Sequence record: OQ721909
From: Escherichia phage vB_VIPECOOM01
Strand: one strand, 5' to 3'
DNA: 64,000 nt
The translations under genes and the position numbers were made by a program. Shown here piece after piece: positions 2,752 to 57,287 of the stretch. The first letter of the stretch is position 1; each line of letters opens with the position of its first letter. The notes beneath the pieces were generated by a model. The model was not told where the DNA came from, did not search any database, and saw nothing but the letters and a program-made list of their open reading frames with translations.

Positions 2752-3345
2752 TTATTTCAGAGAATTAATATATTCCTGGACATCAGCAGAAGTGGTTTCA
2801 ACCCCAGAAATATTACCGTTAAAGGTTTCAACTCGAGCAAGAGTATCTTCAATATCAACCTTAGTTAGCGCTGCGATTTCAACTACATCATCGGCAGTAC
2901 TAATTCCAAGGGCATTTGCCGCACGAGTTTCACGAATATATTCCAATTTAACTGCAAGTTCTTGGCGAGCATCATCTAACTCAACTACTTTCTTGGCGAT
3001 TTCAATTCGCATTTCAGCATAACCGTCAGCTTTAGTAGTCAACTGCTCAGCTGTTCGACGATATAGCAAACCGAGTTTAGCGTGCATTGTTACATCTTGA
3101 CCTTCGGAAAGAAGTTTACGAATTTCACGCTCTTTTGATTCGGCCTGTCGATTCTTTTCGACAATAAGTTCACGAATACGTTTTTCTTCATTAATAGATT
3201 TAACAGAAGCAGTTTTTAGATCTTTAATTTTATCAAGCAGTTTTGCTGCCGCAGCAGTATACTGTTCTTCAACAGATAGATTTTTAGCCATAGCAGAACC
3301 AAGTTTAGTGCGAATAAACTCAACAATTTTCTTCAGTGTGTTCAT
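2752..3345 (-). CDS. Coiled-coil protein, possibly PspA/IM30-like (e.6 position)
   Basis: 197 aa, charged heptad-like repeats throughout ([34 protein letters not shown]); family assignment is a guess. Confidence 0.5.
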
Positions 3346-3388
3346 AGTATTTCCTTAGGTTAATTGAGATTTAAAATCTGTGGAAGAA

Positions 3389-3919
3389 TTATATCCCATT
3401 ATTTGAGAGATGTAAACTATTTTTAATTTTACAAATTCGTTCAGCTTCATCGATAGCAGCATTAATAATGCTTTTAGCTATAGGAGTACTAATACTAGTA
3501 GCTTTTACACTTAACACGATTTCTTTATCTTTACCAGGCCAACCCCATGATTTTTCACCGTGAGTGCCTTTAATTACAGCAGACACCTCAAGTGAGCGTC
3601 CATTATCATATGTTTTTACATTAACAACCCAAGGGTCACTTTTCTCAATCGGTTTCTCAACCGGTTTATCCCAGTAAATATTAAGAATGCGTGGGACATC
3701 AAATTTGGCAGGACAAATCTTAACCGTAAGACCTTCGCTTTCTAGCCAATTAATAAGAGGGCGTTCATACAGGCGACGATGTGGGCTTGGGATTCGACAA
3801 GCCTTATGTCCGTTGCTTGCGGCTTCACTAAGCTGTTCTAATACCTGCTTTTGCATTATTGATAAGATACCATCAAAAGATTTTTCGGAAATTTCATTCA
3901 GTTCGGTATAAAGAGACAT
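3389..3919 (-). CDS. Hypothetical protein (e.7 position)
   Basis: 176 aa, SD gaggaa before ATG, preceded by a PeSL-type promoter. Confidence 0.6.
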   Translation of the reverse strand: MSLYTELNEISEKSFDGILSIMQKQVLEQLSEAASNGHKACRIPSPHRRLYERPLINWLESEGLTVKICPAKFDVPRILNIYWDKPVEKPIEKSDPWVVNVKTYDNGRSLEVSAVIKGTHGEKSWGWPGKDKEIVLSVKATSISTPIAKSIINAAIDEAERICKIKNSLHLSNNGI

Positions 3920-3937
3920 AACAGTTTCCTCAAATTA

Positions 3938-3974
3938 TAGGCTCATAATATCTCAATCATGAGCCTATGTAAAC
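3938..3974 (-). promoter_or_regulatory. PeSL-type early promoter with stem-loop
   Basis: Minus strand GTTTAC (-35, plus 3969-3974) abutting upstream stop codon, 17-nt spacer, TATTAT -10; stem taggctcat/atgagccta 3938-3967. Confidence 0.55.
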
Positions 3975-4238
3975 TTATTTCATATTATTGAAATATTCTT
4001 CTGCGATTTCGTCGTTATCATGGTAAACTTTAGAAGACAGTTTAACATAACCTTCTGCTGTGAACATGTTAATCACAACTTTTACAGTATACCATTGACC
4101 ATCTTCATTACCCATTACTGCGTAAGTTTCAAACATCGGATGGTCAGGACCGATAACTTTAATATCATTCACTGTACGACCGAAATCTTCTGAAACGCAT
4201 TTCATAAAGAAGTTGAACAGTTCGCCGTAATTATCCAT
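3975..4238 (-). CDS. Small hypothetical protein (e.8 position); start moved to internal ATG
   Basis: ORF track gives 3975-4292, but the ATG at 4236-4238 has a strong SD (ggagaataaaATG) and lies downstream of the promoter at 4283-4312. Confidence 0.5.
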   Translation of the reverse strand: MDNYGELFNFFMKCVSEDFGRTVNDIKVIGPDHPMFETYAVMGNEDGQWYTVKVVINMFTAEGYVKLSSKVYHDNDEIAEEYFNNMK

Positions 4239-4282
4239 TTTATTCTCCAAGTTGTTTTTCTGTATCAGTAGTTGATAGTTGT

Positions 4283-4312
4283 ATAGTACCATGGAAGAAC
4301 TGGGATGTAAAC
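4283..4312 (-). promoter_or_regulatory. Sigma70-like early promoter
   Basis: Minus strand GTTTAC -35 (plus 4307-4312), 18-nt spacer, TACTAT -10; leader shares CTATCAACTACTG with the promoter at 9376-9414. Confidence 0.45.
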
Positions 4313-4445
4313 AGTTTTGTGAAAAAATTTTTAAAAAGTTTTAGGGAATTCTAGGGAGGGAAGGGGCAATTAAAGGATAGGATAATATATTATAAAGGGT
4401 AGAAACTAAATGATGCCTAGAGAGGTCCAGAAAGGCCTAGATGCC

Positions 4446-4470
4446 AAAAAGCCCTATCATTTAGATAGGG
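4446..4470 (-). terminator. Rho-independent terminator after 4479-5042 gene
   Basis: Stem ccctatc/gataggg with loop attta, followed on the minus strand by CTTTTTGG. Confidence 0.6.
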
Positions 4471-4478
4471 ATTTAAAA

Positions 4479-5042
4479 TTATTTATCTAGTTTAGTTATT
4501 ATAGCTTCTGCGGCAGCTTTTAGCTTAGATGCGGTGTTAATACGATTTTTAATTTCAGTATACGCATCGCCAAGAACATCAAGGCTATCAGAATAAACAC
4601 TTACACTATTGCGTTCGCTATTTGAAATAGAACCTTTAGTTTTACGATCAAAATCGGTGTACACGTCTTGAAGATCACGGGCTGCCTTCTTTGCATCATC
4701 CAATGCGTCAAGAGCTTTATTCAAAGCATTAACGTATTTTTTAGTGTCGAACATATTCTTAGAAATTTTAACAGGTGCGCGTTCAGGAGTAGCTAATGCA
4801 GATTTAGGAACCTGAGCGCCAGATGCCAATTTCTTAGAAATTTTGAAAAACGCTTTATTGAATTTATTTTCTTGACTCATCGTAAAAGAACTATTATCGA
4901 TGTTGTACATTTCAATAGCTTTAGCTTTCCACTTAAGAAAATCGCCGCGGTCTTTTGGGTCCAAGTGGAAGAATACTTTAGTAAGATCTGCTTCAGATGG
5001 TAATTTTGCTGCTTCGGTTAAAAATTCGGCATAGGTTTTCAT
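4479..5042 (-). CDS. Internal-protein-like protein with N-terminal capsid-targeting sequence
   Basis: N-terminus MKTYAEFLTEAA matches the T4 internal protein CTS pattern (MKTYQEFIAE) plus an L-x-E prohead protease site; lysine-rich body; bracketed by terminators. Confidence 0.6.
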   Translation of the reverse strand: MKTYAEFLTEAAKLPSEADLTKVFFHLDPKDRGDFLKWKAKAIEMYNIDNSSFTMSQENKFNKAFFKISKKLASGAQVPKSALATPERAPVKISKNMFDTKKYVNALNKALDALDDAKKAARDLQDVYTDFDRKTKGSISNSERNSVSVYSDSLDVLGDAYTEIKNRINTASKLKAAAEAIITKLDK

Positions 5043-5131
5043 TTAAAATCCTTGAAATGATTTATCAGTTGGTTATTAATTATTTATTACTTTGCTATTA
5101 TCTGCAGCAGCATTCTCTATGTGATTCAAAC

Positions 5132-5160
5132 TAAAAAGCCCCGACCGAAAGGTCGGGGCT
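5132..5160 (-). terminator. Rho-independent terminator
   Basis: Stem agccccgacc/ggtcggggct with GAAA loop, followed by UUUUU on the minus strand. Confidence 0.75.
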
Positions 5161-5167
5161 AAGAATG

Positions 5168-5641
5168 TTATTTGATTTGTTTAGCAGACCAAATGCGGTC
5201 TTTAATAATTTTTTGGATGTCTTCAACATACTCTAGGTCATGAGCATGTGGGTTATCTTTGAAACTATAAGCACGAGCTAGTTTTTGGCCTTCAGTTTTG
5301 ATTACTAAAAGCTCTTTAAGGATAGCTTCATATTTAGCGATAATTCCTTTAACAATATTTTTTTCTTGTGCAACTTTAGGATCTGCTTTAGGAGCAGGTT
5401 TACCCGAAGCCTTTGCAAAAGCAGCGCCAGTAGCAACTAAACTTTTCCAGGCCATACTAACTGCATTTCCTGTAAATCCTTCTGCTTTCATGTCGCGGGC
5501 AAATTGGAATCGTGATTCGTCAGAAGCATCTTTATAGGAATATTTACCCGCTGCAATGGCTGCTTTTGCGACAGCTTGAATTTCGGTGCTAGATGCTTCA
5601 TTTAACACCGCTTCATTTAAAAATTGAGCATATGATTTCAT
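5168..5641 (-). CDS. Internal-protein-like protein with N-terminal capsid-targeting sequence
   Basis: N-terminus MKSYAQFLNEAV (CTS-like, L-N-E cleavage motif); own late promoter upstream and terminator downstream. Confidence 0.6.
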   Translation of the reverse strand: MKSYAQFLNEAVLNEASSTEIQAVAKAAIAAGKYSYKDASDESRFQFARDMKAEGFTGNAVSMAWKSLVATGAAFAKASGKPAPKADPKVAQEKNIVKGIIAKYEAILKELLVIKTEGQKLARAYSFKDNPHAHDLEYVEDIQKIIKDRIWSAKQIK

Positions 5642-5680
5642 CTTATTTCCTGTTTTAATTCGTGATTTAATATACTACTA

Positions 5681-5688
5681 TATTTATA
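5681..5688 (-). promoter_or_regulatory. T4 late promoter TATAAATA (minus strand)
   Basis: Plus tatttata at 5681-5688, about 40 nt upstream of the 5641 start. Confidence 0.6.
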
Positions 5689-5690
5689 CT

Positions 5691-5718
5691 AAAAAGCCCC
5701 AACCTTTCGGTCGGGGCT
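5691..5718 (-). terminator. Rho-independent terminator closing the tRNA/small-RNA transcription unit
   Basis: Stem agccccaacc/ggtcggggct (one G-U), loop TTTC, then UUUUU on minus strand. Confidence 0.7.
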
Positions 5719-5725
5719 AAGCCTT

Positions 5726-6030
5726 GCGGCAACCTTGTCGGGGTTCCACCTGCTAAGGCAAGTGTTTGTACGAAACGCCGGGATTCGAACCCGGTTATTA
5801 AGCAGTTGACGCTACTCAATATTTTTAAAAGGCCATATCTCGACCATATCCGAACGTTCCGTCAAAAACGCTACTCGGCTTACGGCAAAGATATTTCCTC
5901 GAATCGATAATTCGGTGCGCCGTTTCTGCTGTGATGTAAGGGGATATTAACAAATCGTAAAGATTTATTAAGACCAGTCCTTACGCAGGGAACATCAGTC
6001 CGACGACTTACCGGTAGCGACCCGGTTTCT
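5726..6030 (-). ncRNA. ORF-free structured region, candidate stable small RNA(s) co-transcribed with the tRNAs
   Basis: No ORF of 60 aa or more on either strand over about 300 bp despite dense coding elsewhere; tRNA-like T-arm CCGGG-TTCGAAT-CCCGG (5778-5794) with pairing acceptor-like strands CGGAACG/CGTTTCG (5855-5861 / 5771-5777) but no canonical D or anticodon arm; sits between tRNA operon and terminator. T4 has species 1/2 stable RNAs near its tRNAs. Confidence 0.35.
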
Positions 6031-6380
6031 TAATATTCTTTTAAAGCATCAATTTGTTCACGGCGTTTACGCCATAAATCAATTGCTTCATACGCAGATT
6101 CAGCATTTCGAATTGGACGGCATTTATATAAAGACTTATGATTTTGATATTGTGTAGATAACGGAATTTTATCTAAAAGGTCTTTACGTTCAAAATATTC
6201 GTAACCATCTAAACCAAATGAACGATTTTTGAGAAATTGCCAATGACCGTATTCGTTTTCGACATAAACATAATCCGCGTGTTGATAAAGCAAATTAATT
6301 ACACGTTCAGAAATAACAGTGTCATTGTGATTAAAATAAAATGTTAAATCATGAACTACTAAATAAACATTACCTTTCAT
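6030..6380 (-). CDS. Hypothetical protein embedded in the tRNA operon
   Basis: 116 aa, SD gaggaaaat before ATG, starts 17 nt after tRNA-Arg on same strand. Confidence 0.55.
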   Translation of the reverse strand: MKGNVYLVVHDLTFYFNHNDTVISERVINLLYQHADYVYVENEYGHWQFLKNRSFGLDGYEYFERKDLLDKIPLSTQYQNHKSLYKCRPIRNAESAYEAIDLWRKRREQIDALKEY

Positions 6381-6396
6381 ATTTTCCTCACTTAAT

Positions 6397-6472
6397 TGGT
6401 CGAGGCAGTAGGGATCGAACCTACGACCTAGGACTTAGAAGGTCCTTGCTCTTCCTTCTGAGCTATGCCCCG
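6397..6472 (-). tRNA. tRNA-Arg (anticodon TCT)
   Basis: Hand-folded cloverleaf, anticodon loop CTTCTAA, T-loop GGTTCGATCC, CCA encoded. Confidence 0.8.
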
Positions 6473-6476
6473 TAAT

Positions 6477-6552
6477 TGGGGTGACCGATGGGAGTCGAAC
6501 CCATGACTACGAGAATCACAATCTCGAGTTCTACCAACTGAACTACGGCCAC
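6477..6552 (-). tRNA. tRNA-His (anticodon GTG)
   Basis: 76 nt cloverleaf; anticodon arm CGAGA-TTGTGAT-TCTCG; closely resembles E. coli tRNA-His from memory. Confidence 0.7.
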
Positions 6553-6666
6553 ATTAATACCTACTCCAACAATCAAGATGTCTTCACACGAAATTAAGAG
6601 AAGAGTGATCAGTTCAACCCCGATAATCGCGTCAAGTAGATATTAATGTGACAATTGTCACAAATT

Positions 6667-6741
6667 TGGCGGACGTGATAGGATTCGAACCTATAACCAA
6701 TCGCTTAACAGGCGATCGCTCTGCCATTGAGCTACACATCC
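6667..6741 (-). tRNA. tRNA-Asn (anticodon GTT)
   Basis: 75 nt; anticodon loop CTGTTAA; T-arm ATAGG-TTCGAAT-CCTAT; CCA encoded. Confidence 0.7.
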
Positions 6742-6745
6742 AAAT

Positions 6746-6832
6746 TGGTGGGGAGTGATGGAGTCGAACCACCCGAGTCGCAATGACAATGGATTTACAG
6801 TCCACACCGCTACCTCTACGGGATAACTCCCC
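6746..6832 (-). tRNA. tRNA-Tyr (anticodon GTA), long variable arm
   Basis: 87 nt; anticodon loop CTGTAAA; long extra arm; CCA encoded. Confidence 0.7.
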
Positions 6833-6845
6833 TTAATTCTTAATT

Positions 6846-6920
6846 TGGTGGCCCTGGGTGGAATTGAACCACCATCTGGCGATTATGAGTCGCTTGCTTG
6901 AACCTTCCAGCTACAGGGCC
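6846..6920 (-). tRNA. tRNA with CAT anticodon, most likely Ile (lysidine type); Met not excluded
   Basis: 75 nt; anticodon arm AGCGA-CTCATAA-TCGCC resembles E. coli tRNA-Ile2 from memory; T4 tRNA-Ile also carries CAU. Confidence 0.65.
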
Positions 6921-6929
6921 AAATTTTTC

Positions 6930-7412
6930 TTATTTTATGTAATATTTATTTAAAAACTTTCTAGCTTGAGTATGGCTAACATTTATAGCGTTTGCATAAT
7001 TTTTAATAAAACCTCGTTCATCCATATTAAAATTTTCTAATATTTTTAATCGTCTAATTATCTCATCTTGGCTTAAGGTACTTGCATTATTTTTAGAAAT
7101 TTTTTCTAAAGACTGCACTGAGTGTTTTCGACCATTAAAATTAAAATTTTTAGGTTTTGGAGGAAATCTATCATTTAGTCTCGCATCTTTTGTATTTTGA
7201 TTATTAGTTGCGCAATATATGTTATTTAATGAGTATGGTCCTTTATCACCAAAACGACACATACAGTATTCATGACCCTTTCTTCCACGCTTATCATAAT
7301 TTCCCGTTGATTTCCACCAATTCAACCACTCATCAAAAGTTAAATTCCATTCAATGTTTCTACGTATAGCAGAATTCCGCTGAGAAATATATTTTGCATA
7401 ATCTTCTTTCAT
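6930..7412 (-). mobile_element. Free-standing HNH-like (His-Me finger) homing endonuclease gene inserted between tRNA genes
   Basis: 160 aa; EWNLTFDEW plus CxC and GDKGPYSLNNIYCATNNQN motif resembling degenerate phage HNH nucleases; basic C-terminal HTH-like tail; interrupts the tRNA cluster. Confidence 0.5.
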
Positions 7413-7459
7413 CGCAAATTTCTCTACTTATTGCATACACTAAGCTAAATCAGCAAAAC

Positions 7460-7549
7460 TGGCGGAGGCGATAGGATTTGAACCTATGAGTCGCCGGAGC
7501 GACTGCCGGTTTTCAAGACCGGTGCATTAAACCACTCTGCCACGCCTCC
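7460..7549 (-). tRNA. tRNA-Ser (anticodon TGA), long variable arm
   Basis: 90 nt; anticodon arm CCGGT-CTTGAAA-ACCGG; CCA encoded. Confidence 0.8.
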
Positions 7550-7551
7550 AG

Positions 7552-7625
7552 TCTCCGCGGCAGGATTTGAACCTGCGACATTCTGCTCCCAAAGCAGACG
7601 CTCTACCAAACTGAGCTACACGGAG
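7552..7625 (-). tRNA. tRNA-Pro (anticodon TGG), CCA not encoded
   Basis: Anticodon arm TCTGC-TTTGGGA-GCAGA; abuts tRNA-Ser with 2-nt spacer, as in the T4 Pro-Ser dimeric precursor. Confidence 0.8.
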
Positions 7626-7635
7626 TAAATTAAAT

Positions 7636-7709
<74 letters not shown>

Positions 7710-7714
7710 AAATT

Positions 7715-7801
7715 TGGTGCGAGAAGTGGGACTCGAACCCACAAGGAAATCATTCCGCAGCATTTTAAGTGCTGTGCCTTTACCAATTTGACCATTCTCG
7801 C
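7715..7801 (-). tRNA. tRNA-Leu (anticodon TAA), long variable arm
   Basis: 87 nt; anticodon arm CAGCA-CTTAAAA-TGCTG; CCA encoded. Confidence 0.8.
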
Positions 7802-7802
7802 G

Positions 7803-7875
7803 CTGGGAATAAAGGACTCGAACCTTTGCATCTAGCAGTCAAAGTGCTATGCCTTACCAACTTGGCTAATTCCCA
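7803..7875 (-). tRNA. tRNA-Gln (anticodon TTG), CCA not encoded
   Basis: Anticodon arm TAGCA-CTTTGAC-TGCTA; 1-nt spacer to tRNA-Leu as in the T4 Gln-Leu dimer. Confidence 0.8.
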
Positions 7876-7944
7876 ATTATTAACAAAGGCTCTTAAGCAA
7901 GAACCCTTGATGATAGAGGGTATTAATCAGTGCGATATGAGTTA

Positions 7945-7969
7945 ATAATAACAAATAATTCTTAAAGCA
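7945..7969 (-). promoter_or_regulatory. MotA-dependent middle promoter candidate for the tRNA operon
   Basis: Minus strand TTGCTTTA (MotA box) then 12 nt then TATTAT -10. Confidence 0.45.
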
Positions 7970-8486
7970 AATTAAACATTTTAACGGTCGGCAAAACAAT
8001 TTCTTCTTCTATATAAGAGTATTTAACACTCTCAACTACACGCAAAAAATCATAATCATAATACTCAGAAGCATTACCTAAAATATTAATAAGTCCTTCA
8101 AGCACTTTATTACCATTCACAAAAAATAAGTCAAATACACGTTCTTCATCTTCTTCAGATTTATTACCAAGATCAACTTCTATGCGAAAGACCTTTTTAA
8201 TGAATTCTGGATAAAGCTGGTCTGAGAACAGTCCTTCAACCAAGTATTCATAAATAAAAAGAGATTGCTCGCTGAACAAACCATTACCGCAATAGCGCTC
8301 AATTTTAGTACTAGAATATCTGCTTTTAAATTTCTTTAAAAGATACTGAAATTGTAAGATTTCATGCTCTTCTACGCCAAACAGTGTTTTAGTTTTATAG
8401 TTGTCACCATCATTTTCCCAGGTAGTGACATCAATTACGTAACCCTGCGGAATTGTAGTACCCAAACAAATATTCATTTTCACCAC
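7962..8486 (-). CDS. Hypothetical protein
   Basis: 174 aa ORF in operon with 8480-8770 and 8773-9171; acidic, no motif recognised. Confidence 0.55.
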   Translation of the reverse strand: MVKMNICLGTTIPQGYVIDVTTWENDGDNYKTKTLFGVEEHEILQFQYLLKKFKSRYSSTKIERYCGNGLFSEQSLFIYEYLVEGLFSDQLYPEFIKKVFRIEVDLGNKSEEDEERVFDLFFVNGNKVLEGLINILGNASEYYDYDFLRVVESVKYSYIEEEIVLPTVKMFNLL

Positions 8487-8770
8487 GCTACATTAATGTA
8501 AGTATATTTAATACATTCAAGACCCAAAGGATTCTTGAAAATATCATATTCAAGAGGACCTTTTTCTGTTTCAATAAAGAAATCAAAATTTACTGTATTA
8601 AATTTACGGTCTTCCTTTACTAATTTAACTTGAGAAGATGAACGGTCAATGTAAACATTTTCAACTTCAAAACATGTTAAAATGCCATAATCATCAATCA
8701 AGGCTTTAGCCGCGTCTTGATCATATTTATATCCATTTTCAATGGATGATACTTTCGCATAAAGAATCAT
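8480..8770 (-). CDS. Hypothetical protein
   Basis: 96 aa, overlapping stops and starts with neighbours. Confidence 0.5.
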   Translation of the reverse strand: MILYAKVSSIENGYKYDQDAAKALIDDYGILTCFEVENVYIDRSSSQVKLVKEDRKFNTVNFDFFIETEKGPLEYDIFKNPLGLECIKYTYINVAW

Positions 8771-8772
8771 TA

Positions 8773-9171
8773 TCAGCCTTCATCAACAATAGTGTGAGTA
8801 TTAGCATTTACAATTTGCCACCAATCAAAGCGATTAGAATCCATCGGTTTGTTTTCATTTTCTTTGATAATGTCACGGAGTTCATCTTCAGAGAATGCTT
8901 TAGCAATTAAATCGGTATACCCACCACGGGGATAATAATTATCACCTGCAAACAAAAGGAAATTTACCTTCCCGGAAGGAACATACGCTTCCTTAGGATA
9001 CTTGTTTCCTGTGTGGTCAACCACTTCAATATAACGGTAAGGAATATCGGTTCTTTCAACCCATTGCCATGCCGCTGCAGGGGAATCGAAAGCATCTACA
9101 CCTAAACGATTATCTTCATCTTTAGACGGATTATTTTCGTAATCCGCATATACATAATATTCAACGTTCAT
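8773..9171 (-). CDS. Hypothetical protein
   Basis: 132 aa, start overlaps upstream stop (ATGA arrangement). Confidence 0.55.
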   Translation of the reverse strand: MNVEYYVYADYENNPSKDEDNRLGVDAFDSPAAAWQWVERTDIPYRYIEVVDHTGNKYPKEAYVPSGKVNFLLFAGDNYYPRGGYTDLIAKAFSEDELRDIIKENENKPMDSNRFDWWQIVNANTHTIVDEG

Positions 9172-9356
9172 TATTCACCTTTAGAAATTTTATCCATAAC
9201 GATAGCAATTAAACCAATTAAAAATGCTACTACAAGTGAAAAAACATTTTCTGCCGTAGTCAATAATCCGCATATAAATCCAACAAACATTGAAAAACTG
9301 AAAGCGGAAGCAGAAATTGCAATAGCAACATTTCGAATTAATTCACAACGTTTCAT
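9171..9356 (-). CDS. Small hydrophobic (membrane) protein; start moved to internal ATG
   Basis: Track ORF 9171-9497 would overlap the previous gene and its promoter; ATG at 9354-9356 has SD gaggagaataaaATG and follows the PeSL; 62 aa, mostly hydrophobic. Confidence 0.5.
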   Translation of the reverse strand: MKRCELIRNVAIAISASAFSFSMFVGFICGLLTTAENVFSLVVAFLIGLIAIVMDKISKGE

Positions 9357-9375
9357 TTTATTCTCCTCAGTAGTT

Positions 9376-9414
9376 GATAGGGTAATAATATCACTACCCC
9401 ATCTAAAAGTAAAC
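9376..9414 (-). promoter_or_regulatory. PeSL-type early promoter with stem-loop
   Basis: Minus GTTTAC (plus 9409-9414) directly after upstream stop, stem gatagggta/taccccatc, -10 TATTAT. Confidence 0.55.
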
Positions 9415-9648
9415 TTATTTTTTACGAAAAATTGATTTATTTTCTGCTGCCCATTTTTCAATAACTGCAGCAGGACCAGTAACAACAATTTTATCACCGT
9501 AATCTTCTGCGGCGAGTTGACCGAAATTATCTAATGCATCACGAAGAACTCCATGAGGCATTTCACCCATTTTATCTTTCTTGCCGGTGTAAATAAACTC
9601 AACTTTTACATCAGAAGATTCAGCGATAAACTCTTTGAAAGTTTTCAT
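9415..9648 (-). CDS. Internal protein I-like small protein with capsid-targeting sequence
   Basis: From second Met: MKTFKEFIAESS (CTS-like, I-A-E cleavage motif); 77 aa; position beside 57B matches T4 ipI. Confidence 0.6.
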   Translation of the reverse strand: MKTFKEFIAESSDVKVEFIYTGKKDKMGEMPHGVLRDALDNFGQLAAEDYGDKIVVTGPAAVIEKWAAENKSIFRKK

Positions 9649-9677
9649 TTTAGTTTCCATTCGATTGTTTTGTTTTG

Positions 9678-9715
9678 ATAGGGTAATAATATCACAACTA
9701 AAACCCTATGTAAAC
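9678..9715 (-). promoter_or_regulatory. PeSL-type early promoter with stem-loop
   Basis: Minus GTTTAC (plus 9710-9715), 17-nt spacer, TATTAT -10; stem atagggt/accctat. Confidence 0.55.
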
Positions 9716-9727
9716 AACTTTGTGAAA

Positions 9728-9985
9728 TTATTTTAAATCTTCTAATCGTTTCTTCATCTTAGAACCATTTTTAGCAATTTCTCCTGCATCGGAGCATAAT
9801 GCTAAAAGTGCTTTAACTTTCGTTTGGTCTCCTTTAAAAGATGAAGGATCTACTGCAGCAGCAAGTTCTTTAATACGAGAGAAAAGACGCTCAGCTTCAG
9901 CTAAAGCCATTCCAAGCTTTACTTCCATACCGTGGGAAGATTCAGTGATAGTAGTTTTTGTAGCAAACTCTTTGAAAGTTTTCAT
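9728..9985 (-). CDS. Internal-protein-like small protein with capsid-targeting sequence (paralog of 9415-9648)
   Basis: N-terminus MKTFKEFATKTTITES (CTS-like, I-T-E motif); 85 aa; SD aggaaaataaaATG. Confidence 0.6.
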   Translation of the reverse strand: MKTFKEFATKTTITESSHGMEVKLGMALAEAERLFSRIKELAAAVDPSSFKGDQTKVKALLALCSDAGEIAKNGSKMKKRLEDLK

Positions 9986-10005
9986 TTTATTTTCCTAATT
10001 AATTT

Positions 10006-10045
10006 TGATGAGGTAATAGTATCACTACCTCATCAGCATGTAAAC
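10006..10045 (-). promoter_or_regulatory. PeSL-type early promoter with stem-loop
   Basis: Minus GTTTAC (plus 10040-10045), stem tgatgaggta/tacctcatca 10006-10035, -10 TACTAT. Confidence 0.5.
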
Positions 10046-10057
10046 AACTCTGTGAAA

Positions 10058-10742
<685 letters not shown>

Positions 10743-10743
<1 letters not shown>

Positions 10744-11468
10744 TATAGTACCTTTAGTGTATTTTTAATTTTAGAAAAAAGTTCTTCAAGAGAACCATCG
10801 TTTGTAATTACTAAATCGCCATTACGAATTGGCAATCCAGCTTCTGTAATATGTGTATCATTGGATTTTTGACCAGGACGAACTACATGAATTACTGTAG
10901 CACCCATCGCCCTAGCCGCATCCATTTCATGATCTTGACGAGTATCAGGAACGATATAATAATCATAACCTGAGTTAAATTTATCAAGATAATCTAAAGC
11001 AAATAATTTTACCCAATACATGCGGTCGAAGTTATTAACAATCAAATCCGTACCTAGGGCTTGCATCAGACGACGGACTGACCATTGATCTTCAATATTA
11101 TTTATAACGTCAATAATCTTGTTACATGCTACGGAATCAACTGATTCTTGTCCTTCGTCCTCAAAAACACACACACCTTTAATTGGGCTTTTACTATTAA
11201 GATAGCAAAATGCTTGTTCCATAATCGTGATTACTTCTGATTTAGTCAGATTTAAATTAGTCTCACGATCATAGTCAATTCCTTCAAACTCTTTACGAGT
11301 TAAGCAAGGATAGTCAGTGTTTGCTGCGAATACGCCCCATGCATAAGCCAATGCATCCTTAATAGGACCAGCAAGTTGATATTTAACTGCAGAATAATTA
11401 TTCATGATAAAATCTGCAGTAGTATCTTTTCCACTACGCTTTACACCGCTTAAAAAGATTAGTTTCAT
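10743..11468 (-). CDS. 1: Deoxynucleoside monophosphate kinase
   Basis: 241 aa, P-loop GVKRSGKDT near N-terminus, size and position as T4 gp1. Confidence 0.85.
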
Positions 11469-11517
11469 ATGTTTCTCCTCAAATTTAGTTAAGATTATAA
11501 CACATGAAACTGAAGCA

Positions 11518-12048
11518 TTAAACTTCTGCTATAATTTTGCCATCTTTTTCTACTTGAAAATACGTATAAGGAATCGTTGCTGTGCATACTAAGGCTGGGT
11601 CTGAATCTTCTGTGTAGCTAAATTCTACTTCAGACAGGTCAGAAACCCAAGGCTTATAAAAATTTATTGACATCACGATTTCAGTTTTACTATTATCTAA
11701 AATGTAAAGCGTAATGTATTCAGGACCTGTTTTTTGGGCAGTATTTTCGCCTGTAAGATAGTTACTAGTTCCTAGCATCCATTCATACATTCCTATCCAC
11801 GACTTAAGCTCTTCATCAACTATAAATCTCACGATGAGTGGGTCGTACTCAAATGTAACTCCTGGACGCTGTGCTCGGCCTAGTCCAAATGGCCCAGTCA
11901 CGGTATCAGTAACAGGTATCCTAATTCCTGGAATAGGAACTGACTGAGCATTTAAAGTAAAAGCAGATGTAGTATTACTATGCGGTATTGATACTACAAA
12001 GTTAGTTGTATTTGCTTGGTTAAAAATTTGTTGCAGTGCTTGCGACAT
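11518..12048 (-). CDS. 3: Tail completion and sheath stabiliser protein gp3
   Basis: Track ORF 11518-12129; start moved to internal ATG at 12046-12048 (MSQALQQIF) giving 176 aa, the T4 gp3 size. Confidence 0.7.
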   Translation of the reverse strand: MSQALQQIFNQANTTNFVVSIPHSNTTSAFTLNAQSVPIPGIRIPVTDTVTGPFGLGRAQRPGVTFEYDPLIVRFIVDEELKSWIGMYEWMLGTSNYLTGENTAQKTGPEYITLYILDNSKTEIVMSINFYKPWVSDLSEVEFSYTEDSDPALVCTATIPYTYFQVEKDGKIIAEV

Positions 12049-57226: not shown

Positions 57227-57252
57227 TTTGTGTTCCTCATGTTATGTAAGTA

Positions 57253-57287
57253 AAATTACTATAACACAACACGAGGGACTTGTAAAC
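57253..57287 (-). promoter_or_regulatory. Sigma70-like early promoter abutting the alt stop codon
   Basis: Minus GTTTAC (plus 57282-57287), 17-nt spacer, TATAGT -10. Confidence 0.5.

Follow-up and report, generated by a model that had tools for sequence, protein, structure and literature searches.

Four early promoters embedded in hairpins, found in a 64,000-nucleotide stretch of Escherichia phage vB_VIPECOOM01 (OQ721909; hereafter the window), are probably PeSL cassettes of the T-even type, which is the best combined explanation of what we observed. The pattern is real, yet it was previously published for T-even phages (Repoila 1994; Arbiol 2010; Comeau 2014). A first-pass annotation had already placed these elements among the PeSL cassettes of T4-type phages, which fits both the published layout and the T-even promoter consensus. 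The core of that observation (promoter motifs, −10 boxes within hairpins, complementary arms) holds, although several details do not. Our additions to the published work, which we grade as modest, are formal covariation evidence, a sense-strand G.U bias, a series of 0–4 cassettes with mosaic junction elements, the finding that a promoter can occupy a breakpoint without a hairpin, and a second type of hairpin-embedded promoter, in which the ribosome-binding site (RBS) is masked. OQ721911.1 (Escherichia phage vB_VIPECOOM03, Tequatrovirus; record bases 64001–128000) matches the window with 100% identity, and the gene order around the elements is 57B, ip, trna.4...e.8, e.7 slot, e.6.

The motif GTTTAC-N16–18-TAYTAT occurs five times in the window, always on the minus strand (Table 1), against a shuffled-sequence expectation of 0.15, and none of 100 shuffles reached five. 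All four elements match the T-even early consensus TTTACW-N17-TAYWAT, as given in PMC4122927, and three carry the TG of an extended −10. Each is followed by a Shine–Dalgarno sequence (SD; GAGG, GGAG or GGAA) and an ATG within 15–45 nt of the −10, the SD lying 6–25 nt downstream of the stem and unmasked by it. The PeSL layout (PMC2839356) consists of an upstream stop in an AT-rich stretch, −35 and −10 boxes, a stem-loop that mostly overlaps the −10 or sits between the two boxes, an SD and an ATG; here, all four elements are intergenic, and the stop of the upstream gene falls in the AT-rich stretch that precedes the −35, or immediately before that stretch. The 17-nt spacer reported at first pass is reached only if the −35 is taken as TTTACA/T, as the distance counted from GTTTAC is 18 nt. 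Similarly, GTTTAC was said to follow the stop codon directly, which is so at 3974 and 9414 but not at 9715 and 10045, where 12 nt (TTTCACARAGTT) separate it from TAA. We infer promoter activity because the boxes fit the early consensus of T4 and the elements are orthologous to T4 intergenic sites, at which the T4 records carry no promoter features.

Table 1. Promoters, stems and cassette genes located in the window (all on the minus strand)
Feature	Coordinates	Details
e.6 early promoter, right-hand boundary of e.7 slot	3388–3417	GTTTAC-N18-TATAAT; without hairpin, z +0.2
e.7-slot gene, 176 aa	3389–3919	stop codon inside −10 of next promoter
Element 1, e.8/e.7-slot gene boundary	3937–3974	GTTTAC 3969–3974 abutting TAA; −10 TATTAT 3945–3950
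Element 1 stem	3956–3968 with 3937–3949	fold 3937–3968; 13 bp, −18.1 kcal/mol, z −6.1; encloses −10
e.8 early promoter	4283–4312	without local hairpin; preceded by canonical terminator 4452–4470
Element 2, ip-B/trna.4 boundary	9376–9414	GTTTAC 9409–9414 abutting TAA; −10 TATTAT 9385–9390
Element 2 stem	9392–9403 with 9376–9387	fold 9376–9403; 12 bp, one G.U, −16.1 kcal/mol, z −3.8; encloses −10; leader CTATCAACTACTGAGGAG
ip-B, second internal protein cassette	9415–9648	starts MKTFKEFIAE...
Element 3, ip-A/ip-B boundary	9678–9715	−35 9710–9715; −10 TATTAT 9686–9691
Element 3 stem	outer 9703–9709 with 9678–9684; inner 4 bp	fold 9678–9709; 7+4 bp, −12.5 kcal/mol, z −3.4; encloses −10
ip-A, internal head protein cassette, 85 aa	9728–9985	N-terminus MKTFKEF..., capsid-targeting leader
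Element 4, 57B/ip-A boundary	10006–10045	−35 GTTTAC 10040–10045; extended −10 GTGA+TACTAT 10016–10025
Element 4 stem	10023–10035 with 10006–10018	fold 10006–10035; 13 bp, loop AUAC, −17.4 kcal/mol, z −6.1; encloses −10
alt.-1 promoter (our name), downstream of alt	57232–57287	TAG overlaps GTTTAC; −10 TATAGT
GTTTAC-N16–18-TAYTAT matches	3945–3974, 4283–4312, 9385–9414, 9686–9715, 10016–10045	motif search

The −10 lies inside a stem-loop in all four elements (z −3.4 to −6.1), as first described. Only 3.4% of minus-strand 46-nt windows fold at −12 kcal/mol or below, whereas four of the eight early promoters do (p about 8e-5); the remaining four in the window lack a local hairpin. The arms had been said to differ between copies while staying complementary, and our alignments bear this out by covariation among paralogues and orthologues, with changes on both sides at 10 of 14 and 7 of 13 stem pairs. 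In these alignments 91% of cells are paired versus 28–61% with slid partners, a comparison that is partly circular since the alignments were picked because they fold. The unbiased test is the comparison of cognate with swapped halves in IMG/VR: 19 of 61 unselected elements in gene context (31%) fold at −12 kcal/mol or below, versus 3.5% of swapped-half chimeras and 2 of 41 non-gene matches. Orthologues of element 1 show stepwise compensation (T-A, T.G, C-G; also A-T to G-C), double changes in orthologues pass through G.U intermediates, and at least about ten unrelated arm sequences stay paired. The non-Watson–Crick stem pairs comprise 17 G.U and no A.C on the sense strand; therefore, on this comparative evidence, it is most likely the RNA structure that is under selection. 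Some chimeric junction elements have lost their pairing (−1.9 and −4.4 kcal/mol), and the hairpin is therefore not indispensable. Rfam covariance models run over 3300–10600 with E up to 1 returned only tRNAs and chance matches.

The first pass regarded these elements as marking exchangeable modules, with breakpoints of gene presence or absence expected inside them. At the internal-protein (IP) slot between 57B and trna.4, and at the e.7 slot, breakpoints do fall in or beside elements. T4 has the same elements at the same sites, the counterpart of element 4 being upstream of ipI. Homology of ip-A to T4 stops at 9951, just past the common leader, and homology to T4 and ECO78 picks up again at 9394–9397, inside element 2; ip-B is missing in T4, ime09, HY01, ECO78 and slur02. 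Among relatives the IP slot holds 0–4 cassettes and always one element more than cassettes, the elements combining one of three 5′-half types with one of three 3′-half types, and those at the junctions being mosaics. In the T4 trna.4 element, the 5′ half is that of element 3 and the 3′ half that of element 2; the crossovers of chimeric junction elements fall in the common GTGATAYTATTAYC core. The e.7 slot is occupied in T4 and ECO78 by an unrelated e.7 of 111 aa and is empty in PsgM02F; homology to these three phages breaks at 3917–3927, by element 1, and homology resumes at 3361–3418, near the hairpin-free e.6 promoter. The elements do not, as had been claimed, delimit every small gene of unknown function. 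Within 3938–10045, only ip-A and ip-B have hairpin elements on both sides, and as internal head proteins these are not genes of unknown function; no hairpin elements occur between trna.4/.3/.2, the phrog_2290, 16521, 3355 and 2280 ORFs and the tRNA genes.

Ordinary homologous recombination between conserved parts of neighboring elements would add, delete or swap the enclosed genes, and at the IP locus the common 12-nt upstream box and the leader/capsid-targeting codons may serve as extra homology. PeSL elements show how small accessory genes are kept by T-even phages in the form of exchangeable, self-sufficient modules, every one equipped with a promoter of its own. The class to which the internal-protein genes belong can counter host defenses, according to PMC2839356 and PMC4122927, which helps explain fast host adaptation and is relevant to the engineering of therapeutic phages.

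Genome-wide, the link between breakpoints and elements concerns a minority of cases: 10 of 66 indel breakpoints relative to T4 are 30 nt or less from an early-promoter element, compared with 3.8% of random positions (about 4-fold enrichment, p about 2e-4), and 85% lie away from such elements. One could imagine a signal acting on the DNA itself, in which the repeats extrude as hairpins or cruciforms and are cut by endonuclease VII or gp46/47, creating recombination hot spots at cassette borders. The position of the elements at slot borders and the chimeric crossovers in the loop/−10 core would suit it, as would an RB49 mini-circle whose crossover was mapped to the loop in one case (PMC2839356). 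However, the crossover zone is also the longest identical stretch, so that plain homology suffices, and the stems measure merely 7–13 bp. A two-strand cruciform would penalize G.T and A.C equally, against the 17 to 0 seen on the sense strand. Early promoters with a hairpin sit at T4 breakpoints in 5 of 11 cases versus 5 of 26 for those without, a difference that is not significant. Since hairpin-free promoters are also found at breakpoints, promotion of recombination by the hairpin itself is not demonstrated, and we consider this explanation unlikely.

Under the preferred PeSL reading, each element would be a strong sigma-70 early promoter made of an A/T-rich region with the previous stop, G-TTTACW, a 17-nt spacer, an extended −10 (TGnTAYTAT), an SD and an ATG, in which complementarity is maintained between the variable spacer and positions −6 to +4. 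Transcription is predicted to start about 7 nt past the −10 (around 10009, 9679, 9378 and 3938, minus strand), at the 3′ end of the 3′ arm; therefore, the hairpin would form only in read-through RNA from upstream and not in RNA started at the element. It may act on the read-through transcript as a boundary, by attenuation or pausing or by blocking 3′ exonucleases, which would let each cassette be expressed separately. This boundary role is the weakest step of our account and we put it forward tentatively.

A stricter version would make every element a terminator–promoter pair, the stem ending the upstream transcript. True terminators were proposed in the PeSL papers, one RB49 stem terminated strongly in a lacZ reporter (PMC2839356), and a sense-strand hairpin just past a stop codon is where an intrinsic (rho-independent) terminator would be expected. 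Such terminators combine a G+C-rich hairpin with a U-run, whereas our four stems are A/U-rich with G.U pairs and none is followed by a U-run (tails CAACUACU, CAAAACAA, AAAAUUAA and AAUUUGAG); the sole published assay concerned a G/C-rich RB49 stem. A consensus scan calls terminators nearby at 4452–4470, 5137–5160 and 5695–5718 but at none of the four elements. Lacking both U-tract and terminator call, the elements are unlikely to be canonical terminators, and we hold this version to be slightly less probable than the DNA-level one.

Complementarity could also be a functionless by-product that arose as promoter cassettes were repeatedly duplicated and recombined. Poorly paired recombinant elements evidently persist and about two thirds of this genome's early promoters lack a local hairpin, as such a by-product would allow; but the pairing kept across unrelated arms, the double changes through G.U intermediates and the gap between cognate and swapped halves already disfavor this idea, which appears very improbable. 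The least credible idea is that the inverted repeat serves as an operator, bound by a dimeric protein of phage or host to turn early promoters off. The dyad is indeed centered on the −10 and early-promoter shut-off in T4 is incompletely understood (PMC3014915), but arm sequences differ so wholly among elements that one protein could not read them all, and most early promoters are without the repeat.

PeSL architecture and its link to indels are described in PMC2839356 and PMC4122927, which cite Repoila 1994 for the IP loci. The closest match to our elements is the T-even PeSLs of PST/T4 (Comeau, Arbiol and Krisch 2014; PMC4122927), which share the phage group, the promoter consensus and weak A/U-rich stems of variable size, along with the tie to internal-protein loci and indels (see also Repoila et al. 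1994). The 2014 figure legend places stems "just upstream of the promoter", whereas here the arms flank the −10; the PST/T4 stem consensus AGNA-loop-TCNT is not evident in our four stems, and the same paper mentions high variability. The RB49/phi1 PeSLs (Arbiol et al. 2010, PMC2839356) have the same layout, clustered in hyperplastic regions. There, one chimeric element remains after deletion of the flanked ORF, likewise here for ip-B relative to T4, and excision of flanked ORFs as mini-circles is a feature of that system. In RB49 the boxes are near-perfect (TTGACA/TATAAT) and the stems, of the G-run/C-run type, terminated transcription in a reporter, in contrast to GTTTAC/TAYTAT and A/U-rich stems here. 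Judged by their sequences, the two groups share a design but are different families, and the PeSL authors rate T-even elements as analogues, not homologues, of those of RB49.

Our elements also recall the RBS-masking hairpins of T4 e, soc, 49 and I-TevI (PMC3014915), with the same logic of a long read-through RNA that folds and a locally started RNA that does not. Those hairpins involve late promoters and mask the SD/AUG, whereas our four elements are early promoters with an unmasked SD. In roughly 11 of 37 early promoters of the genome the arms flank the −10, and in at least six further ones the spacer is a predicted anti-Shine–Dalgarno that would mask the RBS of the next gene in read-through RNA only. 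It is conceivable, though we think it rather unlikely, that an early promoter inside a hairpin is a general RNA-level rule of T-even phages for separating read-through from locally started RNA. The 2010 T4 review gives as hairpin-promoter examples only e, soc, 49 and I-TevI, all late promoters; the SD-masking form built on early promoters is absent from these examples (PMC3014915). Should this form prove both real and undescribed, translation of many early genes would be confined to RNA from their own promoter.

The alt.-1 promoter, downstream of the late gene alt, is one of these candidates and follows the T4 RBS-masking design (PMC3014915). It was first described, together with the e.8 promoter, as sharing part of the leader and having no clear stem. 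This is right for e.8, where the leader is present and the stem is not significant (z +0.8 local, −0.5 long fold). The leader CTATCAACTACTG is restricted to 9380 (element 2) and 4278 (e.8 promoter) and is missing at alt.-1, where, moreover, a clear long hairpin exists: the promoter at 57258–57287 lies in a hairpin spanning 57232–57279 (containing 93-nt fold −24.4 kcal/mol, z −4.0), with the promoter spacer as 5′ arm and a 3′ arm that covers the SD GAGGA. Its T4 orthologue is found at T4 123093, a site that the annotation there puts just upstream of alt.-3.

The motif GTTTAC-N16-18-TAYTAT has five matches in the 64-kb window, where 0.15 would be expected, and every one is on the minus strand. 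A looser scan of the window yielded eight plausible early promoters with a downstream gene start (11523, 10045, 9715, 9414, 4312, 3974, 3417 and 57287). Four of them, elements 1–4, are enclosed in hairpins (z −6.1 to −3.4), and the remaining four (11523, 4312, 3417, 57287) show no local fold (z +0.2 to +0.8). Since 3.4% of 46-nt windows on the minus strand reach −12 kcal/mol, four folding promoters out of eight correspond to p ~8e-5. The details of the layout given in the first-pass annotation need some correction: GTTTAC abuts the stop codon in two of the four elements but not in the other two, the spacer is 17 nt when counted from TTTACW but 18 nt from GTTTAC, and the leader said to be shared with 57253-57287 is not found there, CTATCAACTACTG being present at 9380 and 4278 only.

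Coordinates of the elements and other features (window positions unless a record is named)
Feature	Position	Strand	Remarks
e.6 promoter	3388-3417	-	
Element 1	3937-3974	-	e.8/e.7 slot; −18.1 kcal/mol
e.8 promoter	4283-4312	-	
Terminator	4452-4470		
Terminator	5137-5160	-	canonical; AGCCCCGACC...GGGGCT, then T-run
Terminator	5695-5718	-	canonical; near-identical to 5137-5160
160-aa ORF (phrog_16521)	6930-7412	-	inserted in tRNA cluster
Element 2	9376-9414	-	ip-B/trna.4 border; −16.1 kcal/mol
Element 3	9678-9715	-	ip-A/ip-B border; −12.5 kcal/mol
Element 4	10006-10045	-	57B/ip-A border; −17.4 kcal/mol
Site before gene 1	11463-11523	-	GTTTAA-N18-TATAAT
alt.-1 promoter	57258-57287; hairpin from 57232	-	follows late gene alt; stop TAG overlaps GTTTAC
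Spacer-to-SD promoters	57232-57287	-	alt.-1 promoter with its hairpin
Spacer-to-SD promoters	OQ721911 165960, 137054, 60248, 49905, 7839		

The elements are T4-type promoter-early stem-loop (PeSL) cassettes, as had been proposed. Arbiol et al. 2010 (PMC2839356), who define PeSLs, place the stem in most cases between the two boxes or across the −10, and the layout of their RB49-type PeSLs is that of our elements; they treat T-even sequences as analogues, whose promoters are of the T4 early type and whose A/U-rich stems are weaker. According to the same authors, Repoila et al. 1994 saw PeSL-like sequences at two T-even IP (internal-protein) loci, and a passage in Comeau et al. 2014 (PMC4122927) gives the consensus TTTACW-N17-TAYWAT for PST/T4 PeSLs, tied to indels. 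A GenBank note on phage ATK47 reports a 43-bp direct repeat flanking Ip7. Taken together, these descriptions make the hairpin-promoter elements a correct rediscovery: the feature is real, the core of its interpretation holds, and elements of this kind had been described before. Orthologues of the hairpin promoters stand in front of ipI, trna.4 and e.7 in T4. The T4 records NC_000866 and AF158101 carry no promoter annotation at these sites; one T4 record note, on Pe133295, shows that the early promoters recognised in T4 include a similar element enclosed in a hairpin. Genome-wide, a gene start follows ~37 early promoters here, about 11 of which have a local hairpin; in T4 the figure is 9 of 36. 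An Rfam search found no RNA family matching the elements, and a search of the literature for maps of T4 start sites or 3′ ends returned nothing usable.

Over 3300-10600 the sequence matches Escherichia phage vB_VIPECOOM03 (OQ721911.1, genus Tequatrovirus) at 100% identity, and the record base equals the window base plus 64000. Within 1-12 kb the minus-strand genes run 1, 57A, 57B, ip-A and ip-B (both encoding internal head proteins), trna.4/.3/.2, the tRNA cluster and the ORFs inserted in it, e.8, a 176-aa gene where e.7 would be, e.6 and the genes leading to e, a gene order identical in T4. At the site of the phrog_16521 ORF, UGKSEcP2 and PsgM02F have a tRNA-Thr instead, homology breaking at 7439 and 6920; this ORF may be mobile, in the manner of T4 segB.

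Arm sequences change between copies in a compensatory manner, keeping their complementarity, as the first reading had it. An IMG/VR scan with GTTTAC-N14-GTGATAYTAT gave 102 distinct elements, with at least ~10 unrelated arm pairs. Folds of −12 kcal/mol or lower are reached by 19 of the 61 elements followed by a Shine-Dalgarno sequence (SD) and ATG, by 2 of the 41 matches lacking a gene start, and by 3.5% of chimeras whose 5′ and 3′ halves come from different elements. This comparison of cognate and chimeric folds is the unbiased test, because the two fixed-register alignments were picked for folding; in these, both sides changed at 10/14 and 7/13 pairs, and 91% of cells are paired versus 28–61% with partners slid. 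Orthologues of element 1 display stepwise replacement, one pair going from T-A through T.G to C-G and another from A-T to G-C. The sample of orthologues is small: the flank-anchored IMG/VR scans gave few T-even contigs (19, 7 and 5 loci), and the ~1100 GenBank relatives are represented by 13 loci. The non-Watson–Crick pairs in the stems are 17 G.T on the sense strand and no A.C, some 8–9 of them independent, an asymmetry that speaks for selection on the sense RNA rather than on a DNA cruciform involving both strands. In the IP loci of RB7 and of IMG/VR locus L107, recombinant elements join the element 3 5′ arm to the element 4 3′ arm, and an A-to-G change (ATAGGGT to ATGGGGT) restores pairing; it looks like compensation following crossover.

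What the hairpin does is less certain. A protein operator was rejected, the arms being unrelated from copy to copy. A canonical terminator is unlikely as well: the tails 3′ of the four stems have no U-run, and a scan that recovered three true terminators (see table) called none of the stems. The −10 sits in the loop and 3′ arm, and the arm ends at about +4 when counted from the expected start, so that, judging from the sequence, the hairpin would be absent from RNA started at the element and present only in read-through RNA. We tentatively suggest, as a possibility short of even odds, that it acts as a boundary on read-through RNA (a pause/attenuator or a 3′ exonuclease block), insulating each cassette. 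Published support for a boundary role is one reporter assay, with a G/C-rich RB49 stem (Arbiol et al. 2010, PMC2839356).

The proposal that the elements mark exchangeable modules stands at the borders of two slots, but not for the region as a whole. The IP slot, between 57B and trna.4, holds no cassette in slur02, one in T4, ime09, HY01 and ECO78, two in the phage studied here, RB7, UGKSEcP2, PsgM02F and PBM-1, three in G4498 and four in VEc74; in every relative compared, N cassettes come with N+1 elements. Each of these elements is a mosaic that combines one of three 5′ halves with one of three 3′ halves, the join lying in the common GTGATAYTATTAYC core. The T4 trna.4 element combines the element 3 5′ half with the element 2 3′ half, the remnant expected if recombination between elements 3 and 2 deleted ip-B. 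Some mosaics retain pairing by G.U or an additional change (RB7, L107), and others have lost it (−1.9 and −4.4 kcal/mol). The e.7 slot, between e.8 and e.6, has element 1 at one end and, at the other, the e.6 promoter, which lacks a hairpin; it contains the 176-aa gene here, is empty in PsgM02F, and in T4 and ECO78 is occupied by e.7, an unrelated gene. The 176-aa gene reads across the entire e.6 promoter, with its TAA stop within the −10 TATAAT, which fits a cassette joined at the upstream edge of that promoter. The remaining breakpoints within 14 kb, however, lie in the tRNA cluster, unconnected with elements, and genome-wide against T4 only 10 of 66 breakpoints have an early-promoter element 30 nt or less away, though this exceeds the 3.8% for random positions (p ~2e-4). 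Of the hairpin promoters 5/11 lie at such breakpoints, versus 5/26 of the others, numbers too small to decide. As breakpoints occur at both hairpin and non-hairpin promoters, the conserved promoter sequence, and not the hairpin itself, is the simplest recombination substrate.

Two promoters had been described as having no clear stem. This is true of the e.8 promoter, which has no local fold; an SD-masking hairpin was also rejected for it, its pairing being weak and not significant (z −0.5; duplex −8.0). It is not true of 57253-57287, the alt.-1 promoter (our name; T4 annotates the gene downstream of the orthologue as alt.-3), which lies within a long hairpin (containing 93-nt fold −24.4 kcal/mol, z −4.0) and whose spacer pairs with the next gene's SD, GAGGA. 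Spacer-to-SD duplexes of −14 kcal/mol or lower occur in 6 of the 37 promoters of the genome (swapped partners 2%, shuffled spacers 0.4%), the same set is present in T4, and differences among variants are wobble-compatible. As the spacer is complementary to the next gene's SD, the ribosome-binding site would be masked in read-through RNA only. This arrangement would constitute a second promoter-in-hairpin form; the cases of such logic listed in a 2010 T4 review (PMC3014915), namely e, soc, 49 and I-TevI, all involve late promoters.

Upstream of gene 1, the promoter-like site folds with the start-codon region of that gene, at a borderline level (−12.2 kcal/mol, z −2.1). One of the two near-identical terminators follows each of two paralogous phrog_2280 ORFs; T4 has rnaC/rnaD plus one such terminator at that position. 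Finally, T4 NC_000866 133300-133313 (orthologous to OQ721911 133730), a 14-nt stretch centred on the loop of a promoter of the hairpin-enclosed type, is recorded as 'inverted complement of previously reported sequence; corrects the early promoter Pe133295'; either a mistake in the older sequencing or a genuine inversion about the palindrome could account for this.
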